From Archangium sp. (lineage in GTDB: Bacteria > Myxococcota > Myxococcia > Myxococcales > Myxococcaceae): 16,866 nt of DNA. Positions 1,264 to 16,866 of this stretch are shown here, in pieces; position 1 is the stretch's first letter, and every line of letters starts with the position of its first letter. The DNA is taken from assembly GCA_031367385.1 (NCBI GenBank), contig JANLPS010000469.1, positions 1 through 16,866 on the forward strand. Reading direction: 5' to 3'. The position numbers were made by a program, and so were the translations under genes. The notes under the pieces were generated by a model. The model saw only the letters and a list, made by a program, of their open reading frames with translations. It did not search any database and was not told the DNA's origin.

Positions 1264-3810
1264 TCACGCGATGGCGCCGTTCTGGTCGGAAGCCTTCGCA
1301 AGGGTGCGTCGCCGCCGGCACAGCCCGACCAGCGCGATGACCGCCACGAGGCCGCTCGAGCTCTCGCAACTGCATCCGACCGCGTAGTCGCTGGGTGTGC
1401 TGCCAATGTGACCTGCGTCTGGGTTGGGGGTCGTCACACCGCCATCGGCGACCGCCTGCCCCGCGTCGGTCTCACCCGCACCGGAGTCACCGACGCCCCC
1501 CGCGTCACTGGCCGCCCCCGCGTCACTGAGGCCGCCGCCTGCGTCGGCTACTCCCGCGTCTGAGAACCCTCCATCAGGCGTGCCAGAATCTGCAGGCGTA
1601 CAGGCGCCGACTTGAACGCAACACACCTGCTTCTCGCACACTCGCGAGCCGCACTCCGAGTTTCGGGTGCAGGTCGCGCCGAGGCTGAGGTCATCGCCGA
1701 GCGCCGCGAGCATAGCCCGCTGCACGGACGGGCCCCAGCCGCTCACGGCGCGAGTATACGCGAACAACATTTGGGAATTGCTGATCGGCGGCCCGGCGGC
1801 GACGCTTAGAACATCAGTCGGTGCTTCAATCACGGTGCTGGCTGAGATGCCGCCGTCTTCTCCAATGCTCCACACCCAGAGGTTCGACCCGGCATCGGTC
1901 GCGGTCACGCCAAGCACGTGGAAGACGCCAGCGAGGTAGCCGATGTCTTGCAGGCTGGTGGCGCCCGGTACCTCTTTCATGGTGATGGTCAGCGCGGGTT
2001 GGTCGAGAACGCCGCCGTCGAACCGCAGTCGTGCGGCCCGAATGATTCGGGTGCCGACGACAGGGGCCTCCTCCCAGGCGACCAGCAGCATCGCGGGTGA
2101 TTTCGCCAGGCGGCCGAACCTCCCGTAGCTCGCAGATGGAAACGAGGAGAGCTCGGTCACAGCATTCCCCTCGACGGCCAGCACTCGCTCTGCGGCGAGG
2201 TCGTTGCTGAGAAGAAAGGCACCCGCGCCGTTGCTGATGACGTCGAATACGGTGTTGTACATCGCACTGACCGAGACCCGCGCACCGCTCAGATTGCCCT
2301 GGGTGTCGAGGTACTGCGCGAACGACCCGCTCGACAAACCGGAGTACGCCATCACGTACCCCGGTGTGGTGAGTGAGCAGATGAGTGGGGGGCTCATGAT
2401 GCCGTCGGTGATGTTGGCGCGCTTGGTCGGGGCACCTGCAACGTGAGGCCACTCCAGGAGATCGATCGAAAACGCCTGATACGCGGGGAGCACGAAGGCC
2501 TGGCCATCATCGGCGATGAACCGCTGCAGGTAATTGGAGTTGGTGAAGCTCGAATTCAGGGTCTGCAGGGCGGTCGGGGCTTCGAGCGCCCCGCCGTCGG
2601 GCCCGAGTCGCACGGCCTCGAGTAAATACTCACGAAGCAGCTGGCGATCGTCATTCCACGCGAGGGCCAGAGGGGTCGAGACCTCGCGCGATGAAAAGGC
2701 CGGCGAGAGCTGCGACGAGGGGCGGGTGAACACCGCGAGGGGTGAGCCGGTCGAGACCAGCCCGCTGCCATCGAGTGGCAGGAGCATCGAGCCCACGTGA
2801 TTGCCTCTGCCGACCTCTGTGAATCGACGGGTGTAGAGAAGCAACGGCGCGCCTCCTGAACCCAGCGCGCCCGGTTGCACGGTTCCGCCGTCGCCGGGCA
2901 ACACGAGACTGCTCATGAAGCCCCCATCAGCCTCGAGCTTGACCATGCGCACGCCGGTTGTCTGAAAGCCTGGTCCGAGCTCGCCACACGCGGTGAGCAC
3001 CGAGTCTCCGAGAGCGGCCGATGAGGAGCCGGCGCACAGCACGGGCGTGCTCACCCGAGCGGTGAGCGCGCCGAGCATGGTGAAGAAGGCGAACTCGAAG
3101 GCAACGCCGGTGCGCATCAGCGCCACGTAGTTGTCGGTCGCGACGACCTGAGGGAAATAGCCGTCGAGAAAGCTCGCCGAAGCAGGCGCTCCATCGATGC
3201 CGACACGAACCAGTGCCGTCTGGGTGCCACCATCTGACAGCGGGCTCGTAAAGACCACCCAATGCGCTGTGCTGTTGCTCGCCACCTCGGAGAGATCTCC
3301 GTACGAGGTCAAGTCATGGTCGATGCCGGCGGTGGTCGCGTCGTCGTTGAGCTGCTGCGAAAAAGTGCGAAGACCGCCGTCGACGTATTCGCGATGAAGG
3401 GCGACCAGGTGCCCGGGCTGGCCAGCGACATAGGTGCGGCTCGTGTAGGAGTTGCCGAGTGGTTGGGCGGGCCCGAAGACCCTGGTCGCCGGGTCGTAGG
3501 TCATCGCGAACCCCGTCGACGTGAAATTGCGAATGTAGCTGACGATGACTCCGGTGGCTGACCGGGTCAGCAGCAGAGGGCTGTCTTGGGCGACACCGTC
3601 GGGCAGGTCGAGCGCTGGGTCGAGGCCGCCATCTCCCGAATAAAATCGCAAGACGGCCCGGCTGCGATCGACCACTCCGATGAGCTGGCCATTCGAGATG
3701 CTCAGGGCCGTGGGTTGCGCTCCGGTGGGCCAGGCGATCGGCGCATCGACCGGGCGCTCATCGCTGACAACCGGCCCAAGTAAGAGCAGAAGCCAGATGC
3801 CCGAAGTCAC
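1264..3810 (-). CDS. Large secreted beta-rich surface protein with Cys-rich module, DAG linker and MYXO-CTERM sorting tail
   Basis: 864-aa ORF; start placed at GTG 3810 (MTSGIWLLLLLG, short hydrophobic leader), ATG 3858 also possible. C-terminus GCSC-ESSS-GLVAVIALVGLC-RRRR fits MYXO-CTERM (Cys motif, hydrophobic helix, Arg cluster), preceded by GATCTRNSECGSRVCEKQVCC and an acidic DAG/DGG linker. Confidence 0.8.
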   Translation of the reverse strand: MTSGIWLLLLLGPVVSDERPVDAPIAWPTGAQPTALSISNGQLIGVVDRSRAVLRFYSGDGGLDPALDLPDGVAQDSPLLLTRSATGVIVSYIRNFTSTGFAMTYDPATRVFGPAQPLGNSYTSRTYVAGQPGHLVALHREYVDGGLRTFSQQLNDDATTAGIDHDLTSYGDLSEVASNSTAHWVVFTSPLSDGGTQTALVRVGIDGAPASASFLDGYFPQVVATDNYVALMRTGVAFEFAFFTMLGALTARVSTPVLCAGSSSAALGDSVLTACGELGPGFQTTGVRMVKLEADGGFMSSLVLPGDGGTVQPGALGSGGAPLLLYTRRFTEVGRGNHVGSMLLPLDGSGLVSTGSPLAVFTRPSSQLSPAFSSREVSTPLALAWNDDRQLLREYLLEAVRLGPDGGALEAPTALQTLNSSFTNSNYLQRFIADDGQAFVLPAYQAFSIDLLEWPHVAGAPTKRANITDGIMSPPLICSLTTPGYVMAYSGLSSGSFAQYLDTQGNLSGARVSVSAMYNTVFDVISNGAGAFLLSNDLAAERVLAVEGNAVTELSSFPSASYGRFGRLAKSPAMLLVAWEEAPVVGTRIIRAARLRFDGGVLDQPALTITMKEVPGATSLQDIGYLAGVFHVLGVTATDAGSNLWVWSIGEDGGISASTVIEAPTDVLSVAAGPPISNSQMLFAYTRAVSGWGPSVQRAMLAALGDDLSLGATCTRNSECGSRVCEKQVCCVQVGACTPADSGTPDGGFSDAGVADAGGGLSDAGAASDAGGVGDSGAGETDAGQAVADGGVTTPNPDAGHIGSTPSDYAVGCSCESSSGLVAVIALVGLCRRRRTLAKASDQNGAIA
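1411..1598 (-). repeat. Coding low-complexity D-[AGS]-G tandem linker
   Basis: ADSG, PDGG, SDAG, ADAG, SDAG, SDAG, GDSG, TDAG, ADGG, PDAG at 5-7 aa spacing; ccccgcgtcactg occurs twice on the + strand. Boundaries approximate. Confidence 0.85.
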
Positions 3811-3978
3811 CAGACCACGATGTGCCGATGCCACAGAAATGTCTACGACGAGGAGCATCGTGTTGGGCGACCGCGGCGAGGGCCTTCGTCGAGCTCCGCG
3901 ACATCTTCAAAGCGGAGGTTCGAGCGCTCGAGCACGCGGCTGCCCGCGAGCGCAACCGACACGCAAAGCCATCGCCGT

Positions 3979-9205: not shown

Positions 9206-11545
9206 CTATCGGTCGACCAGCTGCCAGGTCATGCCCCCGATATCGACCATCGTTGCCCGGCCGGTTGCCGGGTCAGTGTAAGTCACTGCAAACGCGGCAT
9301 AGGGTGGGCTCACTCGAGTCGGGCGCTGGGCCCAGGCGGTGCCATCGTACAGCCAGGTGTCGCGCGAGACGCCCGGCGTAAAGCCACCGTAAAGAACGAC
9401 TCGGCTCAGGTTCGCATCGTAGGCCAATGACGCGGCATAGCGGGCAGTCGGTTGGGGGTCGCCCGCTTTCGGCTCCCAGGTGCTGCCCGTCCACTCCCAG
9501 GTTTCACCCAGTGGGCTCGACGACGACCGCCCACCCATCAGCACGAGGCGCATTCGAACCGGGTCTGCCCCAAACCCGGCGAACGCGCGGGCTGACGGAG
9601 CCGCCGCGGGAGAATGCTGCTGCCAGAGGGTGCCATTCCACGACCAGGTGTCGTTGAGCAAACCGGTTTGACCGACGCCGCCGAAGAGCACGATTCGCCC
9701 CAGATTGGCATCGTAGCCCATGACGTGGCCCTCGCGAGCACTCGGCGAATCAGAGGGCTGAGCGGGGGTGACATTGGCCCAAACCGAGCCGTCCCAGGTC
9801 CATGTGTCGGCACGGTACGGAGACTGTGCCCCGCCGAACATCACGAGGGTGCCCCTTGAGGGGTCGAAGGCCATCGTGCACGAATACCGAATCGGGGGAG
9901 CCGCGCTCAATGAAGGCATGGTCCACGTGTGGCCGTCGTATTCCCACAGGTCGGTCTGAGGGTAGCCGTTACCCGCAGAGCCGCCGTAGAGAACCATTCG
10001 CTGCCGCGCAGAATCGAACGCGCCGCATGACCTCATTCGATACGGCGGCCTGAGTGGAATGGTGCGGCTCCACGTGGCGCCGGCGAGCTCATACGTCTCA
10101 TCGCGAAATTCGTAGTTGAGGTGGTAGCCACCGAAGACGACCATTCGGTTTCGAGCACGGTCAAACGCCATCGAGTGACCGGAGCGAGCCGGTATCCCCG
10201 AGGTCGCTACGGCCGACCAATTCGTCCCCGTCCACGCCCAGGTGTCAGACACGCCTGGGTTGCCGCTGTCGCTCAGCCCCCCGAAGACGAGCACTTGGTG
10301 GCGCTCGGAGTCGTACGCCATGGAGTGGGAGTACCGCGGTGCGGGCTCGGTCGTTGGCGCCACTTTTTGCCAATTTGACCCGTCCCACAGCCAGGTGCCG
10401 GTCACTTTCTGGCCGATCTGCGAAATGCCACCAAAGAGCACGGCCTGGCCGTTCATCTCATCAAAAGCCATGGACGAGTAGGCTCGCGCTTCGGGTGACG
10501 TCACCGGAGACTTCACCGTCCAGACCGAGCCATCGAGCTCCCAGGTGTCGTCGTAATACGTGCTGGCGTTGAAGCCGCCGAAGAGCACCAGTCGCTGGCG
10601 AACCGAGTCGTAGGTCATCAAGCATTCCAACCGAGCCGGAGGGCCGCTCGCAGAAAAGATCTGCGACCAGGTCGTGCCGTTGAAGGCCCACGTCTCGCCG
10701 TTGGTGGCCCCCGAGCGGTTGCCACCAAAAATCACCACCCGAGCATTCTTCGCGTCGTACGCAGCGCATGAACCATTGCGCGCAGTGAGCGCTGGTGGCG
10801 TGGGCTTCGAGGTCCACGACGTGCCGTCCCACTCCCACGTGGTGTTCAGGGGTGCGTTGCTCGAGTCGAGCCCACCGAACAACACTGTCTTGCCACGAGC
10901 GATGTCGTACGCCGCGACACTGTCTTGACCGACGGGCCCGGCCGCCGGCGAAATGTCGAGCCACAGCGGGCCACCGGCGTCGACCGGTGGGCCACCCGCG
11001 TCAACTCCGAGGCCGGCATCGACGGCCGAGCCTGCGTCGGTCGAGCCGGCGTCGCTCCGTGATGTACCAGCATCAAACATCGACGAGCCGGCATCGGCAG
11101 ACGAGGCCCCCGCGTCAATGGGCAAGCCGGCGTCGCCGTTCGTACCAACCCCCACGAGGGGTACGAGCAAGACTGGCGTTTGTCGTGAATCGGTCTCGAT
11201 TCGCAGTGACGCCGAAAACGCGCCGGCTCGCAGTGGCCGAAAGGTGACTGCAACGACGCGCGTCTGCCCTGCACCGATCTCGAACGAACCAAGCGATGGC
11301 ACCGAAAACGCCGGGGCCGCTAGGCTCGAATCGACCGACACAGCCGACACGTTCAGCGCCCGAGCCCCTGCCGCCTCCAAGGTGATCATGCGGGTAGCGC
11401 TCTCGTTCTGCACGACCGAGCCAAAATCGAGCTCCTGGGGGCTCGTCGACAAGGTCGCGAGCGACGGGCCGATTTTGTCTCCAGTGCAGCGAAGGCCAAG
11501 AAGCGCAACGAGGAGCGTCAGAAACCGAAGAACGAGGCGTGTCAC
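9206..11545 (-). CDS. Secreted (probably lipo-) protein: choice-of-anchor D/ASH-type Ig-like domain, DAG linker and 12 Kelch-like repeats
   Basis: Start placed at GTG 11545 (MTRLVLRFLTLLVALLGLRC; ORF track extends to 11626). SPQELDFGSV...VTFRP...LRIETD...VPLVGVG fits the Ig-like domain; 11 clear repeats P.R...M.[YF]D..R...VLFGG...TW.WDG..W plus a degenerate 12th. Confidence 0.88.
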   Translation of the reverse strand: MTRLVLRFLTLLVALLGLRCTGDKIGPSLATLSTSPQELDFGSVVQNESATRMITLEAAGARALNVSAVSVDSSLAAPAFSVPSLGSFEIGAGQTRVVAVTFRPLRAGAFSASLRIETDSRQTPVLLVPLVGVGTNGDAGLPIDAGASSADAGSSMFDAGTSRSDAGSTDAGSAVDAGLGVDAGGPPVDAGGPLWLDISPAAGPVGQDSVAAYDIARGKTVLFGGLDSSNAPLNTTWEWDGTSWTSKPTPPALTARNGSCAAYDAKNARVVIFGGNRSGATNGETWAFNGTTWSQIFSASGPPARLECLMTYDSVRQRLVLFGGFNASTYYDDTWELDGSVWTVKSPVTSPEARAYSSMAFDEMNGQAVLFGGISQIGQKVTGTWLWDGSNWQKVAPTTEPAPRYSHSMAYDSERHQVLVFGGLSDSGNPGVSDTWAWTGTNWSAVATSGIPARSGHSMAFDRARNRMVVFGGYHLNYEFRDETYELAGATWSRTIPLRPPYRMRSCGAFDSARQRMVLYGGSAGNGYPQTDLWEYDGHTWTMPSLSAAPPIRYSCTMAFDPSRGTLVMFGGAQSPYRADTWTWDGSVWANVTPAQPSDSPSAREGHVMGYDANLGRIVLFGGVGQTGLLNDTWSWNGTLWQQHSPAAAPSARAFAGFGADPVRMRLVLMGGRSSSSPLGETWEWTGSTWEPKAGDPQPTARYAASLAYDANLSRVVLYGGFTPGVSRDTWLYDGTAWAQRPTRVSPPYAAFAVTYTDPATGRATMVDIGGMTWQLVDR
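10968..11140 (-). repeat. Coding DAG tandem linker (9 copies)
   Basis: GDAG, IDAG, ADAG, FDAG, SDAG, TDAG, VDAG, VDAG, VDAG at 5-7 aa spacing; VDAGGP is duplicated. Boundaries approximate. Confidence 0.85.
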
Positions 11546-11714
11546 GGAGGGCGAGCGTATCGCGACGCCGTGCCGCTTTGGCGACCTTCGCGCAACAAGC
11601 CCAAACAACTTCTCGGCGCTCATCACGGCGCTCAGACCCCGGCCGCTCTATGAAGCGTTGGCCACGGTCGAGGAGCACGCCGTCTCGCCAGAACTTCGCC
11701 AGGGGTGGCCGGTG

Positions 11715-12143
11715 TCACGGTTGCCAGGCGCCTTTCGGGTCATCAGGGGCGGCGGCGTGCGGCACCTTGGCGCGTTCGCCTCGCGCGTTGATGGCCGCCA
11801 CCTGCTCTTTGTAGTCGCTGGCCAAAAGGTCGAGCTTCGAATTCAGCGCTGCTTGGCTCGCTGAAGTGAAGGCAACCAAAGCGGCGTTGTAGGCGACCGT
11901 GGCCGTGTTCACGTCTTTGCGGTTGCTCCCAGTCGGTCGGCGGTCGCCGTCGTCAAAACCCGAAGCGGAGGCACCTGTTCGGGGCGGGTTCTTCGCACGT
12001 TGGAGCGCGGTGCTCGCCGCTTCGAGGGCCGTCGTCGCATTGCCCAGGTCTTTGACCTTTTGCTGGACCTCTGCGACTGCCTTTTGGTGGGCTTGGGTGG
12101 GTGAAGCGACTGCTGCGGTGTCGACTGTTCCTTGGTTGGCCAT
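11715..12143 (-). CDS. Hypothetical Ala-rich helical protein directly downstream of the RHS core gene (immunity position)
   Basis: Strong AAGGAG Shine-Dalgarno before ATG 12143; 22 nt after the RHS stop; 142 aa with no Cys, signal peptide or TM segment. Confidence 0.75.
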   Translation of the reverse strand: MANQGTVDTAAVASPTQAHQKAVAEVQQKVKDLGNATTALEAASTALQRAKNPPRTGASASGFDDGDRRPTGSNRKDVNTATVAYNAALVAFTSASQAALNSKLDLLASDYKEQVAAINARGERAKVPHAAAPDDPKGAWQP

Positions 12144-12165: not shown

Positions 12166-14484
12166 TCACAGAGACTTGTAGAAGCAGAGCGTGCCCTTCG
12201 CCATTACACCCCGTGAAAACGCCCCAAAGCCGCCTGAGACCTCGTCGACGCCCGAGCGGGTACCAGGCAGGTTGGGCAAGCCGAAGGCAGGCAGTGTCGG
12301 CCGCCCGTCTGCGTTGAAGCCAATGTCGATTCCGATGCCGCCGACCCAAGGTGAAGACACGCCGCCCTCGGCGAACCACCCCTCGTACATTTCGGGCTTG
12401 CAGGTTTCTCCGGTCATGTTGGTGACCGCACCGCCACCGAACGAGGCGCCCACCGCGAGGCCTCCGCAGATCTTGTAGTAGCGAAAGGTCTTTCTCTGAC
12501 CGCACTTGTCCGTGCAGGTCACCGCCGCAAGCCCGCCGCCGACGCCGAAGTGTGCCTCGGCGCCGTAGTACAGCGTCGGGTTGAGAGGGGTGATTTGACG
12601 TGAGAGTCTCGCACCTCCGAGGCCCGCGGCCCCATTGCCCATCAAGCCCGTGGGGTCGGTGAAGCGCAACGGGTCGTTGAACACGAATGCGTACGTGTTG
12701 GGCCCGCCTTCGAGCCCACTCGGGTCAGACTCGATGTAGCGCCCAAGGCGCGGGTCATAGTCTCGAGCGTGGTTGAAGACGAGCCCAGTCTCTTTGTCTG
12801 CGTACTGGCCCGGCCCGCGCAGATTGAAGGTGAAGGCCGGTAACTCTGGGGCGGCGGTGCCGAAGGGGTCAGCGAGCCACCGCCAGCGAACGGCGCCGCC
12901 GCGGTCGACGATGACGCGAGGGGTGTCGAGGTGGTCTGCGTGAATGAAAAAGACTTCATTCTCGATGATGACAGCGATTGGGGTGTCGTCGAGCCACACG
13001 TACTCAGCAATCGCGAGGCCGGTCTGGTCGTACTCGCCGAGCAGGTGGCCCTGTTGGTCATAGGCGAAGAGCACGGTGCCGGCCTTCGAGCTCTTTCGTA
13101 CTCGCCGCCCCTGCTCGTCGTAGGTCGAGGTCGTCGAAAGGCCTGCGACGGTCACCTTCTTGAGTCGGTTCGCCTCGTCATAGTCAGCGACAAAGCGCCC
13201 GTCGCTCAGCGTGTTACCCACAGCGTCATACGTAAAGAGCTGGGTCGGGTTCGTCGCAGACGTGAGGCGGTTGCTAGTCGGGTCAACGACGTAGGTACGG
13301 GAGACTCCCTGAACGACCTCGCTGAGGCGGTTGCCGTTCGCGTCGTAACGGTAAAGGCCGCGGGCTTCTCCGCCTATCGAAAACTGGGTGAGCTCGCCAA
13401 GCGCGTCAGATGAGAACGACTGGTTCATGGCAGGCACAGCTGCCCCGGTTTTCGAATCAACATGGGTATACTCCTCGACACGCCCAGCCGAGTCGAAACG
13501 AACGTCACGAACCACGTCTCCGAGCGGGTAGCGAATCATTCTGCCCATAGAGTCGTAACTCTTGGGGTGAGGGAACGTGATCGCGCCGCGCGGGCCTCCG
13601 CCCCAGACCCATGATTCGATGGGTCCGAAGGGCGTGTACCGAACTTGACTCACGATTACAGTGTCCGGAGGAGAAACAACTCCGCGTGGCGCTCGCCTCA
13701 CCAAGGACACCCCGGTGACCCGCTCGGCGGTTCGGGTGAACGCAATCGAATACCCTGACGGGTACCCAATTTCGCGTACCGCACCACCGGCCGTGTACGA
13801 ATACCGCACGCCCTGTCGAACCGAGTTGGCATTCGCGCCTGAGGCAGGCTCAATGGTGCGCATCTCTCGTGCCAGGCGTCCGGCCGAGTCATAGGCGAAT
13901 GTTGCCGTCGTCTCGGGCGTCTGAGCAGAAGTCAAGCGCCCTACGCCGAACGCGAAGCCGGCACCCGTTTCGCTGTACCTGAAGGTCGTCGTTCGCGTTG
14001 ATGCGCCCAGTGCATTCGCCACCGAGGTCACCCGATTCGAGGCATCGTAGGTGACGGTTGTGACGGCGCCCCGCGCATCGGTCATCGATTTCACATTGCC
14101 AGCCGCGTCGTACACCTTCCGAGCGATGCCGGTGTCTGGGCTCACGAGTTGTGAGTTGCCCAAACCATCACGCTGGTACTCGGTGATGAGGGTGCGAGTG
14201 TCAGCCACGAACACGGTGCGGCCCTGGCCGTCGTAGCCGAACTGGGTAACACCCTTCGCGCCGTCGGTGACGGCAACAGGTTTGTCGAGTGCGTCGTAAT
14301 TCAAAGCAAGTGAGACTCCTGCGTCGGCAGACCATGTCAGCATCGTGCGATTGCCGGTCGCGTCGTAGGTCGTCTTGAGCGTGACGATGGGCGAGGTTGG
14401 CTGCGATTGCCCGAGCGAAACACGGGTCAACAAGAACAAGGCGAGCGATGCGACCCATCGAAGACTGCGAACGTGTGTTTTCAT
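12166..14484 (-). CDS. RHS repeat-associated core protein (C-terminal half of RHS shell) with its own signal peptide and a 158-aa C-terminal tip
   Basis: Leader MKTHVRSLRWVASLALFLLTRVSLG/QSQ; many YD repeats; core HADHLDTPR...FNLRGPGQYADKETGL..N.ARDYDP.LGRYIESDP.GL.GG.NTYA...NDP..FTDPTGL. Confidence 0.95.
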   Translation of the reverse strand: MKTHVRSLRWVASLALFLLTRVSLGQSQPTSPIVTLKTTYDATGNRTMLTWSADAGVSLALNYDALDKPVAVTDGAKGVTQFGYDGQGRTVFVADTRTLITEYQRDGLGNSQLVSPDTGIARKVYDAAGNVKSMTDARGAVTTVTYDASNRVTSVANALGASTRTTTFRYSETGAGFAFGVGRLTSAQTPETTATFAYDSAGRLAREMRTIEPASGANANSVRQGVRYSYTAGGAVREIGYPSGYSIAFTRTAERVTGVSLVRRAPRGVVSPPDTVIVSQVRYTPFGPIESWVWGGGPRGAITFPHPKSYDSMGRMIRYPLGDVVRDVRFDSAGRVEEYTHVDSKTGAAVPAMNQSFSSDALGELTQFSIGGEARGLYRYDANGNRLSEVVQGVSRTYVVDPTSNRLTSATNPTQLFTYDAVGNTLSDGRFVADYDEANRLKKVTVAGLSTTSTYDEQGRRVRKSSKAGTVLFAYDQQGHLLGEYDQTGLAIAEYVWLDDTPIAVIIENEVFFIHADHLDTPRVIVDRGGAVRWRWLADPFGTAAPELPAFTFNLRGPGQYADKETGLVFNHARDYDPRLGRYIESDPSGLEGGPNTYAFVFNDPLRFTDPTGLMGNGAAGLGGARLSRQITPLNPTLYYGAEAHFGVGGGLAAVTCTDKCGQRKTFRYYKICGGLAVGASFGGGAVTNMTGETCKPEMYEGWFAEGGVSSPWVGGIGIDIGFNADGRPTLPAFGLPNLPGTRSGVDEVSGGFGAFSRGVMAKGTLCFYKSL

Positions 14485-16866
14485 TGTGCTTGTTCTCCGG
14501 TCGTACGCTGCAATCGGCCAAGGGCATCGAACTGTTGGGTCGTGAGTCGAACCGATGTGCCAAGCGCGTTCTTCACCTCGATGCGAGTCGGGTTGTTGCG
14601 CGCGTCGTTTGTGAATTCGAGCGTGTTGCCAGCGCCGTCGACGATGGCAGTGACTCGGCCCGCGGCGTCGTATTTCATCGACCGGCTCGATTGATCGGCC
14701 GTTGACATGAGATCGAGAGCCCCCCTCTTGTCGTAGCCGTACTGGGTGCCAAGCGGGTCACTGAGCAATCTCCCCCGCGCGTCGTAGGTGGAGCGCCTGA
14801 CGACTCCGTTTGAATCGACCTCTGAGAGCAGCCGCCCAACGCCGTCATACGCCACATAGGTGGTGACCTCGCCGGTGGCGGTGGTGCGTTTTGCCAAATC
14901 ACCACGGGTGTGGCTCGCGGTGGTGTCGCCGAAATATTCGAAAGTCGTTACGTCAGCGACATCGGTGCGAGGGCCATCTTCGGTCAGCACTTGGCCGGCG
15001 GCGTTATAGGTGTAAGCCCACACCCTTGCCGGTATCCTCGAGTCGATGATTGGGTTGAAGCTGCGTGTGCCGGTGACGTCGGTTGTTGCCCGCTCAACTC
15101 TTCGACAAATGACGGTGAGGGGTGCTGGGCCAGAGAACCGCAGCCTACTCGGGGCACACCAGGTGACGGCGTAGCCCCGGGTCGGGTCTGGCTGCCCGTT
15201 GTAGACGATGTTCGTCATTCGATTCGGCTCTGCGATTCGCGTGACAACCTTGGTCTGCGCACCCAGATTCATGAAGTCTTTGGTGATGCTCCGAGCGCCG
15301 CGCGGCAACACTGCGTTGTACGAAGTTACTGTTGAACACACCGTGCCTGCCGGGAGCCCTTCGACACGGGTTTCGCGCGAGCCATCGGACACGACGCAGG
15401 TACGGTGGCCGTTGAAGTCGTCTTCGCTGGTGACGTTCGCCGCAGAGTCATAGGCGACAGCACTCGTCGAAGCTGAGCAGCCGGCCCCCGCAGGTTGACT
15501 TCGACTCGTCACCAGAGGCTGGCCGAACAAGGTGGTCACTCCGAGCTGGCTCGAGGTGCCGTCAGGGTAGGTGACGACGGGGTTGGTCGGTGCAACCCAG
15601 AAATAGGTACGCGTTATCTTGTCGGAGTCGATGACCTCACTCATCTCGATGTGTGGCGGTGCGTCATACGTCACAGAGAACCGGTTCACACCGCCCGCGT
15701 GCTCGGTCGAGACAGCGCGGCCCGCGCTGTCATAGCCAAAAGTACTCACTCGCACCCTGCGCTCGTCCGTAACCCCAGTGAGCGCCCCAAAAGACCTCAT
15801 GTCTTCGTAATGAAAAGAGCGCCGGCTGCCGTCTGCCCACGTGATGTCGGTGAGCATCGCATTCGAGTTGTACGTCAAGGCGGCCACGACCGTGCCCGAC
15901 CTAAGCGCTCGCGTCAGCAGGCCCCCAGTCGCTGCGGGGCTCCCCGGTGGCAGTTCGTACTCAAAGTCGAGGGCTCTGCCGAATTGGTCTTCGACCCGAA
16001 TCAGGTACCCCGGCGCGGGGGCCTTGAGGGCATCGGTGCTGTAGGTAAACTTCAGAGTTCGCCCGTCAACAAAGTCAATGCGCTTCAGGCCCCCAGACAT
16101 ATCGTCATAGGCCTCAAGGCCGAGATCCTTGCTATCGACGTAGAGGCGTTCTCCATCGACGGGTCCGTACAAGATGTCGGTGACGTCACGGTCATTCGTC
16201 GAAAAAGCATTCGTCGGAAAACTGAATACTGCGCCGTCGCCACGGTAGGCCCGAGCGCTCGATAGCGAGCTGGGGTCTGGCAGCACTTGGTCAAGGCGCC
16301 GATGCAGGTTGCTGAACCACAAGTTCCCAACCGCAGGGGCGCCATTATTGGCCGTCGCGGCGCCATTGGTCGGTACAGCAACCGCATTGCTGTCGTAGGT
16401 GAGAACCCATTCAAGGCCCCCCAATACGAGGCCGGTTGAAACCGACTCACGTTTGGCGCCCACGAGAGGGGAAATGGGGTTGCCGTAACACGTATTTGGG
16501 CGCTTCTTGGTCTTGTCGATGACGACAACCGGGCCGCATTTGCGAAGCGAGCCAGGGGGATTATTCGGCTGCAAGAAAAGTTCGCTCGGAGGCGGGCACC
16601 GACACTCGCCGCCAGAAGCAACCTCGTTGATGTTACAGCTCATGCGGTAGCGGCCGTCGCGTCCGGGGCCCCCACCGAAAAGGCATAAGGTACCGTTGTT
16701 TTTCCCAGGGAGGGCTTCCCAATTGCAGAGGGCTTCGTAGGTGTTGAGGAGTTTGCAAGGGAGTCGGCGATAGCAGTAACTCGTACTGGTGTTATCGAAG
16801 CTGAACTGGTCCAGCTCTTCGGCGCCGCTAAGACCAGTCGCAGTGCTGTACTGGTCACCATTGGTG
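14481..16866 (-). CDS. RHS/YD-repeat protein, N-terminal half (Cys-rich head, DUF6531-like domain, YD repeats); 5' end outside the window
   Basis: GNPISPLVGAK...LTYDS...VGNLW...HRRL...RGDG fits the DUF6531-type RHS N-domain; YD repeats to the end; no RHS core. I translated upstream of ATG 16643 and the frame stays open to the window edge (74 more codons, 4 more Cys). Confidence 0.9.
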   Translation of the reverse strand, partial: TNGDQYSTATGLSGAEELDQFSFDNTSTSYCYRRLPCKLLNTYEALCNWEALPGKNNGTLCLFGGGPGRDGRYRMSCNINEVASGGECRCPPPSELFLQPNNPPGSLRKCGPVVVIDKTKKRPNTCYGNPISPLVGAKRESVSTGLVLGGLEWVLTYDSNAVAVPTNGAATANNGAPAVGNLWFSNLHRRLDQVLPDPSSLSSARAYRGDGAVFSFPTNAFSTNDRDVTDILYGPVDGERLYVDSKDLGLEAYDDMSGGLKRIDFVDGRTLKFTYSTDALKAPAPGYLIRVEDQFGRALDFEYELPPGSPAATGGLLTRALRSGTVVAALTYNSNAMLTDITWADGSRRSFHYEDMRSFGALTGVTDERRVRVSTFGYDSAGRAVSTEHAGGVNRFSVTYDAPPHIEMSEVIDSDKITRTYFWVAPTNPVVTYPDGTSSQLGVTTLFGQPLVTSRSQPAGAGCSASTSAVAYDSAANVTSEDDFNGHRTCVVSDGSRETRVEGLPAGTVCSTVTSYNAVLPRGARSITKDFMNLGAQTKVVTRIAEPNRMTNIVYNGQPDPTRGYAVTWCAPSRLRFSGPAPLTVICRRVERATTDVTGTRSFNPIIDSRIPARVWAYTYNAAGQVLTEDGPRTDVADVTTFEYFGDTTASHTRGDLAKRTTATGEVTTYVAYDGVGRLLSEVDSNGVVRRSTYDARGRLLSDPLGTQYGYDKRGALDLMSTADQSSRSMKYDAAGRVTAIVDGAGNTLEFTNDARNNPTRIEVKNALGTSVRLTTQQFDALGRLQRTTGEQAQ

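Follow-up and report, generated by a model that had tools for sequence, protein, structure and literature searches.

The window, by which we mean the entire 16,866-nt stretch of DNA that was analyzed, is the whole of contig C151 in a genome assembly of 7.97 Mb (562 contigs, 65% GC) with what appears to be myxobacterial gene content, and it carries on the reverse strand two adjoining genes, A and B, that each encode part of an RHS/YD shell (Table 1). The products of both genes match PF05593 and TIGR01643, consistent with a YD repeat array in each, while the RHS core is found in B and not in A (TIGR03696, 73.6 bits vs a cut-off of 32.5), with the core motif DPSG...DPTG at residues 588-613. Gene A, for which at least 794 aa are readable given that the 5' end lies beyond the contig edge, terminates inside the YD array with the C-terminal letters ...QQFDALGRLQRTTGEQAQ before its stop. 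The A stop codon shares bases with the B start codon behind a GGAG sequence 10 nt upstream, and B restarts with a leader of ~25 aa, all of which agrees with the initial annotation. The DUF6531-like start that had been ascribed to A did not hold up for the window protein, which gave no DUF6531 match at E≤0.01; the domain was matched in 7 of 34 aligned A homologues. In A homologues a leader is followed by an N-terminal domain with several cysteines. The leader of the window A falls outside the contig, and a database search for a longer contig carrying the start of A found none, though contig pieces from runs X1, X5 and X6 extend past the window end, that of X1 by ~1.7 kb. The A shell part contains four cysteines that are invariant in the family (residues 490, 510, 570 and 587) as well as Cys463, which corresponds to C338 of alignment A2 and is variable in the family. 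Two other genes on the same strand encode large secreted proteins, one (9206-11626) combining Kelch propellers with an Ig-like choice-of-anchor D domain, and the other (1264-3858) with a C-terminal Cys-hydrophobic-basic tail, which we take to resemble MYXO-CTERM.

Table 1. Features of the A-B locus (window positions) and loci of a second type of split (positions by locus)
Feature	Position	Strand	Description
Gene A	14481..16866	(-)	N-terminal half of RHS/YD shell; assigned by RHS-repeat matches and family profile A2
A N-terminal domain, visible part	16488..16866	(-)	126 aa, 9 Cys; hypervariable, cysteine-rich
A shell part	14484..16487	(-)	From GNP motif to A end
Coupling junction	14481..14498	(-)	GGAG (14498-14495) within last codons of A; ATGA overlap (14484-14481) of A's TGA (14483-14481) and B's ATG (14484-14482)
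Gene B	12166-14484	(-)	772 aa; C-terminal half of RHS/YD shell plus tip
B leader	14410..14484	(-)	Residues 1-25; predicted Sec signal peptide, predicted cut after S-L-G (hydropathy heuristic)
B shell part	12646..14409	(-)	RHS core ending DPTG (610-613); no Cys
Tip (cargo)	12169..12645	(-)	159 aa, 21% Gly, 5 Cys; polymorphic; no Pfam family
Downstream ORF	11715..12143	(-)	142 aa, 22 nt after B, behind AGGAG; immunity-gene position
Second-split loci	L227:2903-7212; L199:2995-7310; L210

Using Logan contigs of four runs (X1, X4, X5 and X6, with X1 and X4 possibly being the very source of the window DNA), we found 14400-14500 to be spanned with zero indels and zero substitutions, and the junction thus passed the read check that had been proposed for it. 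Closest to this stretch is a T>C change at 14376 (K37E); C is what three runs and two database members have at this position, so that the base in the window may represent a variant or be erroneous. The second database member, on a 24 kb contig, likewise has a separate 772-aa B. Since a scan for the motif at the mature start of B picks split forms by design, an A-profile search without length limits was added and the best 150 clusters at 50% identity were scored for their end point. Of these, 138 end ≤10 residues from the breakpoint, six run on and six lack the end, so that homologues being always single-chain, which had been named as an outcome that would contradict the proposal, is refuted. 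In 56 of 61 A genes, GGAG or GGGAA occurs among the final 18 nt, and family B genes start -4 to +26 nt relative to the A stop. The conserved A end GRE, found in 47 of 61 A genes, encodes the ribosome-binding site of the next gene; because the A end has this second role, its conservation need not mark an interface. Collectively, the shared breakpoint, the indel-free junction in four runs and a leader on 51 of 51 B proteins (below) bear out the earlier view that the break is not an accidental frameshift and confirm that the A/B split is a real, conserved and deliberate two-gene arrangement, shared by many bacteria from the environment.

Leaders were assessed by the 11-residue hydropathy maximum, a heuristic of our own that was also used for cut sites. 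Residues 1-25 of the window B run from basic through hydrophobic to small and reach a maximum of 2.13, with 8 of 1298 shell windows reaching 2.0. All 51 of the 51 B leaders scored were at or above 1.5, as were 78 of the 1298 shell windows. The mean identity among B leaders is 20%, compared to ~60% for the next 50 residues, and the leaders are thus conserved in property rather than sequence, as in signal peptides. Full-length A proteins start with a hydrophobic leader, and between it and the GNP motif lies an unrelated domain rich in cysteine. The leaders claimed for both halves were therefore recovered, directly for B and through full-length homologues and a paralogue on C277 for A, and both halves look exported by these sequence criteria. 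The absence of a type VI secretion (T6SS) link was also upheld, as VipB/TssC gave no match in the genome, which is 98% complete, and two GspD were found; this combination points to secretion of the assembled shell probably by the type II route. The neighborhoods of the A-B loci have no conserved accessory or transport gene in common, with type II-like neighbors (GspE, F and G genes) adjoining three of them (L035, L070 and L077).

The single-chain relatives C379 (encoded in the window genome), P0200 and P0222 are colinear with A then B, the two halves being linked by ~10-15 residues with no leader, and the close re-fusions P0190 and G440 bridge the break in the same manner. The G440 fusion is nested inside the split clade (41 split rows and G440, SH-aLRT 100). 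The fact that fused relatives join the halves in register suggests one two-chain shell, and we consider it likely from these comparisons that A and B form one closed shell. The C-terminal half of A (53% identity) is conserved like B (55%) and co-diverges with the neighboring B (Spearman 0.68, for pairs that are not independent), while the first 300 shell residues of A are 28% identical and nearly decoupled from B (Spearman 0.10). It had been suggested that the halves could be exchanged freely. Tandem A genes at 5 of 57 pattern loci, a G408 cluster with seven A and three B genes (L186-L188; G408:C1:3525000-3556000), lone B genes in genomes that hold A elsewhere (G061 and G065) and a locus with reversed B-A order fit this suggestion; however, the C-terminal half of A co-diverges with B, and the decoupling is confined to the N-terminal half, which recombination inside A explains equally well. 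The tandem arrays, the G408 cluster and the reversed order are compatible with several addresses per cargo, without proving mixing.

The scan of GTDB for the mature B start returned 59 loci, one row being a non-RHS chance match, and most were in Burkholderiales (Roseateles, Mitsuaria, Pelomonas, Rhizobacter, Piscinibacter, Rubrivivax and Caldimonas), where such gene pairs had been mentioned in the initial annotation. Of the 58 B genes, 52 directly follow an A gene, two are at contig starts and four are without A within 10 kb. Beyond the split clade, relatives consisting of one chain are frequent. A is present in 12 of 201 genomes sampled evenly from the family of G061 and in 2 of 301 genomes of the window's phylum, the window genome included, and a close B was found in just one of 60 relatives, the same-genus G001. 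In a tree of 73 B shells (quick method, midpoint root), 41 split rows and one fused row are on one branch (SH-aLRT 100), and single-chain signal-peptide relatives are the direct parent group. Two split G408 rows fall outside this branch among fused forms of the same breakpoint, with long branches that leave their placement unsure. The window B is placed among Burkholderiales rows, which fits horizontal gain, and together with the scarcity of A and close B genes among relatives supports the earlier proposal of horizontal acquisition.

Several related genes were noted in the course of these searches. A paralogous locus (L091; G000:C277:16676-23808) has the reversed order B then A, and its B carries ~700 extra residues between leader and shell. 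A single-chain relative of 1677 aa with a leader and a cysteine-rich N-domain is encoded at L092 (G000:C379:28645-33678), and another partial A-type gene is located at a contig end (L093; C98:214-1239). In many B proteins the leader and the shell are separated by Ig-like or other domains (P0004, P0008, P0018, P0271-P0281, L077 and L189), suggesting that the break is also a place where passenger domains are inserted.

Tips are highly varied across the family, with 58 BLAST families among 118 tips and Pfam matches in 7 of 48, including GIY-YIG, Tox-WTIP, Ntox16, PLA2-like and alpha/beta-hydrolase. For 44 of 48 B genes, an ORF of 60-260 aa starts -35 to +60 nt from the B stop, and truncated B cassettes trail some loci, as seen for L191-L192 (G063:C2), where eight cassettes, each a truncated B or a core-tip unit, come after one A-B pair. 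These polymorphic tips, toxin domains, small follower ORFs and truncated cassettes correspond to a polymorphic toxin layout. The window tip, which is 51% identical to the C277 paralogue tip and 72% identical to P0003, matched no known toxin family. A similarity look-up with this tip gave unnamed clusters only (0.90-0.91), the same look-up with the paralogous A N-domain gave nothing usable, and a tip-family scan of metagenome contigs gave 78 pattern matches, none confirmed. The 142-aa ORF downstream of the window B has no leader and no cysteine, and no homologue was found, including in the 60 relatives. At C277, B is followed by the A gene with no small ORF after B, and the same-genus locus of G001 has no small ORF either, so that a toxin-immunity pair is not evident for the window cargo. 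The putative toxicity of this cargo is the weakest link of the explanation given below.

Two further features, cysteine parity and a second breakpoint family (considered last), are new and were absent from the initial annotation. The number of cysteines is odd in 118 of 118 full B tips (range 1 to 11; 58 of 58 BLAST families); in 114 of 118 B shells, cysteines number 0 or 2. Among locus proteins, mature A has an even number in 43 of 44, with 10 further ones unparsed, and the same is true of 47 of 47 representatives, namely those of the 150 that passed filters, for a total of 90 of 91. In addition, the parity of the A N-domain tracks the variable shell cysteine C338. Both the even count and this tracking are as expected for full oxidation after export, and the latter suggests that the N-domain may be disulfide-tied to the shell via C338. 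Pairing of the spare tip cysteine with A or with the B shell was rejected given the counts for A and the B shell, as was pairing with the downstream protein, which is odd in 21 of 44. Nor is odd parity peculiar to the split form, since the tip is odd in 87 of 91 single-chain relatives (114 of 122 parsed).

As a control, we examined leaderless relatives of the T6SS-type Rhs L157 (P0390-P0509, obtained with one query; 119 of 120 parsed, 67 tip families). Cysteine is present in 118 of these 119 tips, when 28% would be expected without any by chance, and is near an end in 117. The 92 tips with exactly one cysteine always have it no more than 12 residues from an end (first 12 in 51, last 12 in 41), a feature for which we found no mention in the Rhs structure papers checked. 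Among other RHS classes, tips are odd in 24 of 36 and six are without cysteine, and TreX is given as lacking cysteine in the accessible portion of PMC11606950, indicating that a free-thiol rule is not universal. The simplest reading of the counts is that cargoes of the present RHS class keep one free thiol, which would appear as odd parity where the rest is oxidized. We suggest that this thiol may serve a delivery step.

The A/B genes share YD repeats, a DPxG core, a polymorphic tip, a small downstream gene and truncated cassettes with T6SS Rhs proteins (RhsA 7Q97, Tse5 8CP6, Tse15 8UY4 and 8H8A), as well as DUF6531 in some A. The T6SS proteins, however, are single chains without signal peptides, whereas A/B has two genes, two leaders and a disulfide-rich N-domain; the marks of T6SS Rhs effectors (a PAAR/VgrG link, no signal peptide, a T6SS) were not seen for A/B, and no VipB/TssC was found in the genome. 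The usual RHS form is a shell from one gene, while the A/B shell is conservedly encoded by two. Tc toxin B and C subunits (YenB/YenC, TcdB/TccC) form a two-chain RHS cocoon from two gene products, with the core and cargo on the second, as would A and B; the core match has an E of about 1e-7. Unlike Tc, both A and B have Sec-type leaders and a variable targeting domain is present on the first half. No SpvB/TcdB domains were detected on A or 34 family members, which matched RHS repeats only, plus DUF6531 in seven, and no TcA was found among window ORFs or recurring locus neighbors. One Tc shell accepts different C subunits from separate loci, according to the available part of PMC11067744.

Closer in layout are single-chain RHS proteins with signal peptides (C379 and P0283-P0389), which have the same order of leader, cysteine-rich N-domain, shell, core and odd-cysteine tip but, unlike A/B, consist of one chain with no second leader and no tandem A arrays. 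WapA is a single-chain RHS protein with a signal peptide. Type II-type RHS toxins are tabulated in the portion of PMC3482391 that was accessible. Bacterial teneurin-like proteins (9PT5 and 9IFO), described in the accessible sections of PMC13018210 as common in myxobacteria, combine a Sec-targeted RHS/YD shell with a toxic polymorphic C-terminus and an immunity gene, a layout similar to that of the A/B family. B matches residues 1581-2146 of 9PT5, in the YD/core region only, and the teneurin-like proteins are single chains of >2000 aa with a teneurin superfold and surface anchors, domains that were undetected on A/B. A search of the literature, with supplements and most subscription papers outside its scope, found neither a split signal-peptide RHS nor a tip-cysteine rule described; the split form is not described in the available part of PMC6838775 either, and the words "cysteine" and "split" are absent from the accessible main texts of PMC8636562, PMC11461821 and bioRxiv 2024.02.26.582050. 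We conclude that A/B falls outside both the T6SS Rhs proteins and the Tc toxins; it would act as an Rhs-type polymorphic toxin with a Tc-like two-chain shell, and is apparently a two-gene variant of signal-peptide RHS toxins undescribed so far.

We propose that A and B together constitute a two-chain secreted RHS toxin, a reading to which we assign a probability of roughly 0.7. Each protein would be exported by its own Sec leader, and the two would come together in the periplasm as a single two-chain cocoon, with the C-terminal strand of A pairing with the first strand of mature B. The cysteine-rich N-domain of A, tied through C338 where this residue is present, would recognize the target, and several A genes per B would supply several addresses for one cargo. 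Other Rhs proteins undergo autocleavage after DPxG, and the B core would cut off the tip in the same way. Every cysteine would be paired except one on the cargo, and this free cysteine may be used in delivery, in which a thiol partner other than A and the B shell would bind or handle it. The cocoon would then be secreted, probably by the type II route, as a polymorphic antibacterial toxin.

It is conceivable, though we think it unlikely, that the two-chain shell is real while the Gly-rich cargo of the window is no antibacterial toxin neutralized by an immunity protein, and instead serves kin signaling or adhesion, or targets a membrane absent from the producer. The absence of a small ORF after the paralogous B with the 51% identical tip, the leaderless 142-aa ORF without a homologue in 60 relatives, and a YD protein with a signal sequence that acts in M. 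xanthus motility (per the available part of PMC3150448) are all consistent with such a role; against this, the family has a polymorphic toxin layout with known toxin tips, and one immunity gene could serve both paralogues. Slightly less probable still is that B is a self-sufficient short RHS carrier, acting alone or as a B-B dimer via its tip cysteines, and that A is a separate co-exported adhesin with no remaining part in closing the shell. B without A within 10 kb at 4 of 58 genes, and the domains that many B proteins have between leader and shell, would fit self-sufficiency, yet genomes with lone B genes (G061 and G065) hold A elsewhere, the C-terminal half of A matches B in conservation and co-diverges with it, and re-fusions keep the halves in register. 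The odd tip count, which suits homodimer disulfides, is also found in single-chain forms. The most mundane possibility, a broken gene or an assembly error with the leader as a chance frameshift product, might be suspected from the fragmented assembly of 562 contigs and from frameshifts in some homologous loci (L032, L039 and L082), but its probability is close to nil and we consider it ruled out by the breakpoint common to 138 of 150 clusters, the leaders in 51 of 51, the four indel-free runs and the reversed gene order on C277.

How RHS proteins other than those of T6SS reach and enter targets is stated to be an open question for teneurin-like proteins in the accessible sections of PMC13018210. 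With the candidate targeting half and the cargo half on different chains, as in this natural arrangement, each can be deleted and studied separately, and the cysteine pattern lends itself to a clear and inexpensive test of the still unexplained release of cargo, one that extends to T6SS Rhs effectors. Many RHS genes annotated as fragmented are probably intact two-gene systems.

Finally, a second split, located earlier in the shell (~500 + 940 aa), was found in G720, L210, plasmids of the P. syringae complex and a few other genomes. L227 has ATGA coupling, leaders on both genes and a tip with three cysteines; in this group 1 of 25 sampled loci is split and the others are fused. As the splits are at two different points, the two-gene, two-leader form likely arose at least twice, which suggests selection, perhaps because a shell of 1400 residues is exported more easily in two parts or because one cargo gains further addresses. 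A broader generalization, which we offer tentatively and would not yet bet on, is that these loci represent a widespread, repeatedly evolved, combinatorial class of Sec-exported RHS toxins, in which arrayed A halves with differing disulfide-rich targeting domains join any compatible B in the periplasm, so that addresses and cargoes are combined between proteins, and that cargoes of this class and of the T6SS class alike have to keep exactly one free cysteine, which would point to an undescribed thiol-dependent step in the exit of cargo from the cocoon or its entry into the target. Thirteen proteins (P0093, P0096, P0098, P0099, P0102, P0103, P0105, P0106, P0107, P0109, P0111, P0112 and P0120) end just before the RHS core at one motif, suggesting a third breakpoint, for which a pattern scan gave 0 of 401 genomes. 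One of them, P0107, consists of a leader and a B half without core, possibly indicating three genes. An Rhs element of P. savastanoi, which Sisto et al. in 2010 reportedly found to be needed for bacteriocin production, may be a locus of the second-split type.
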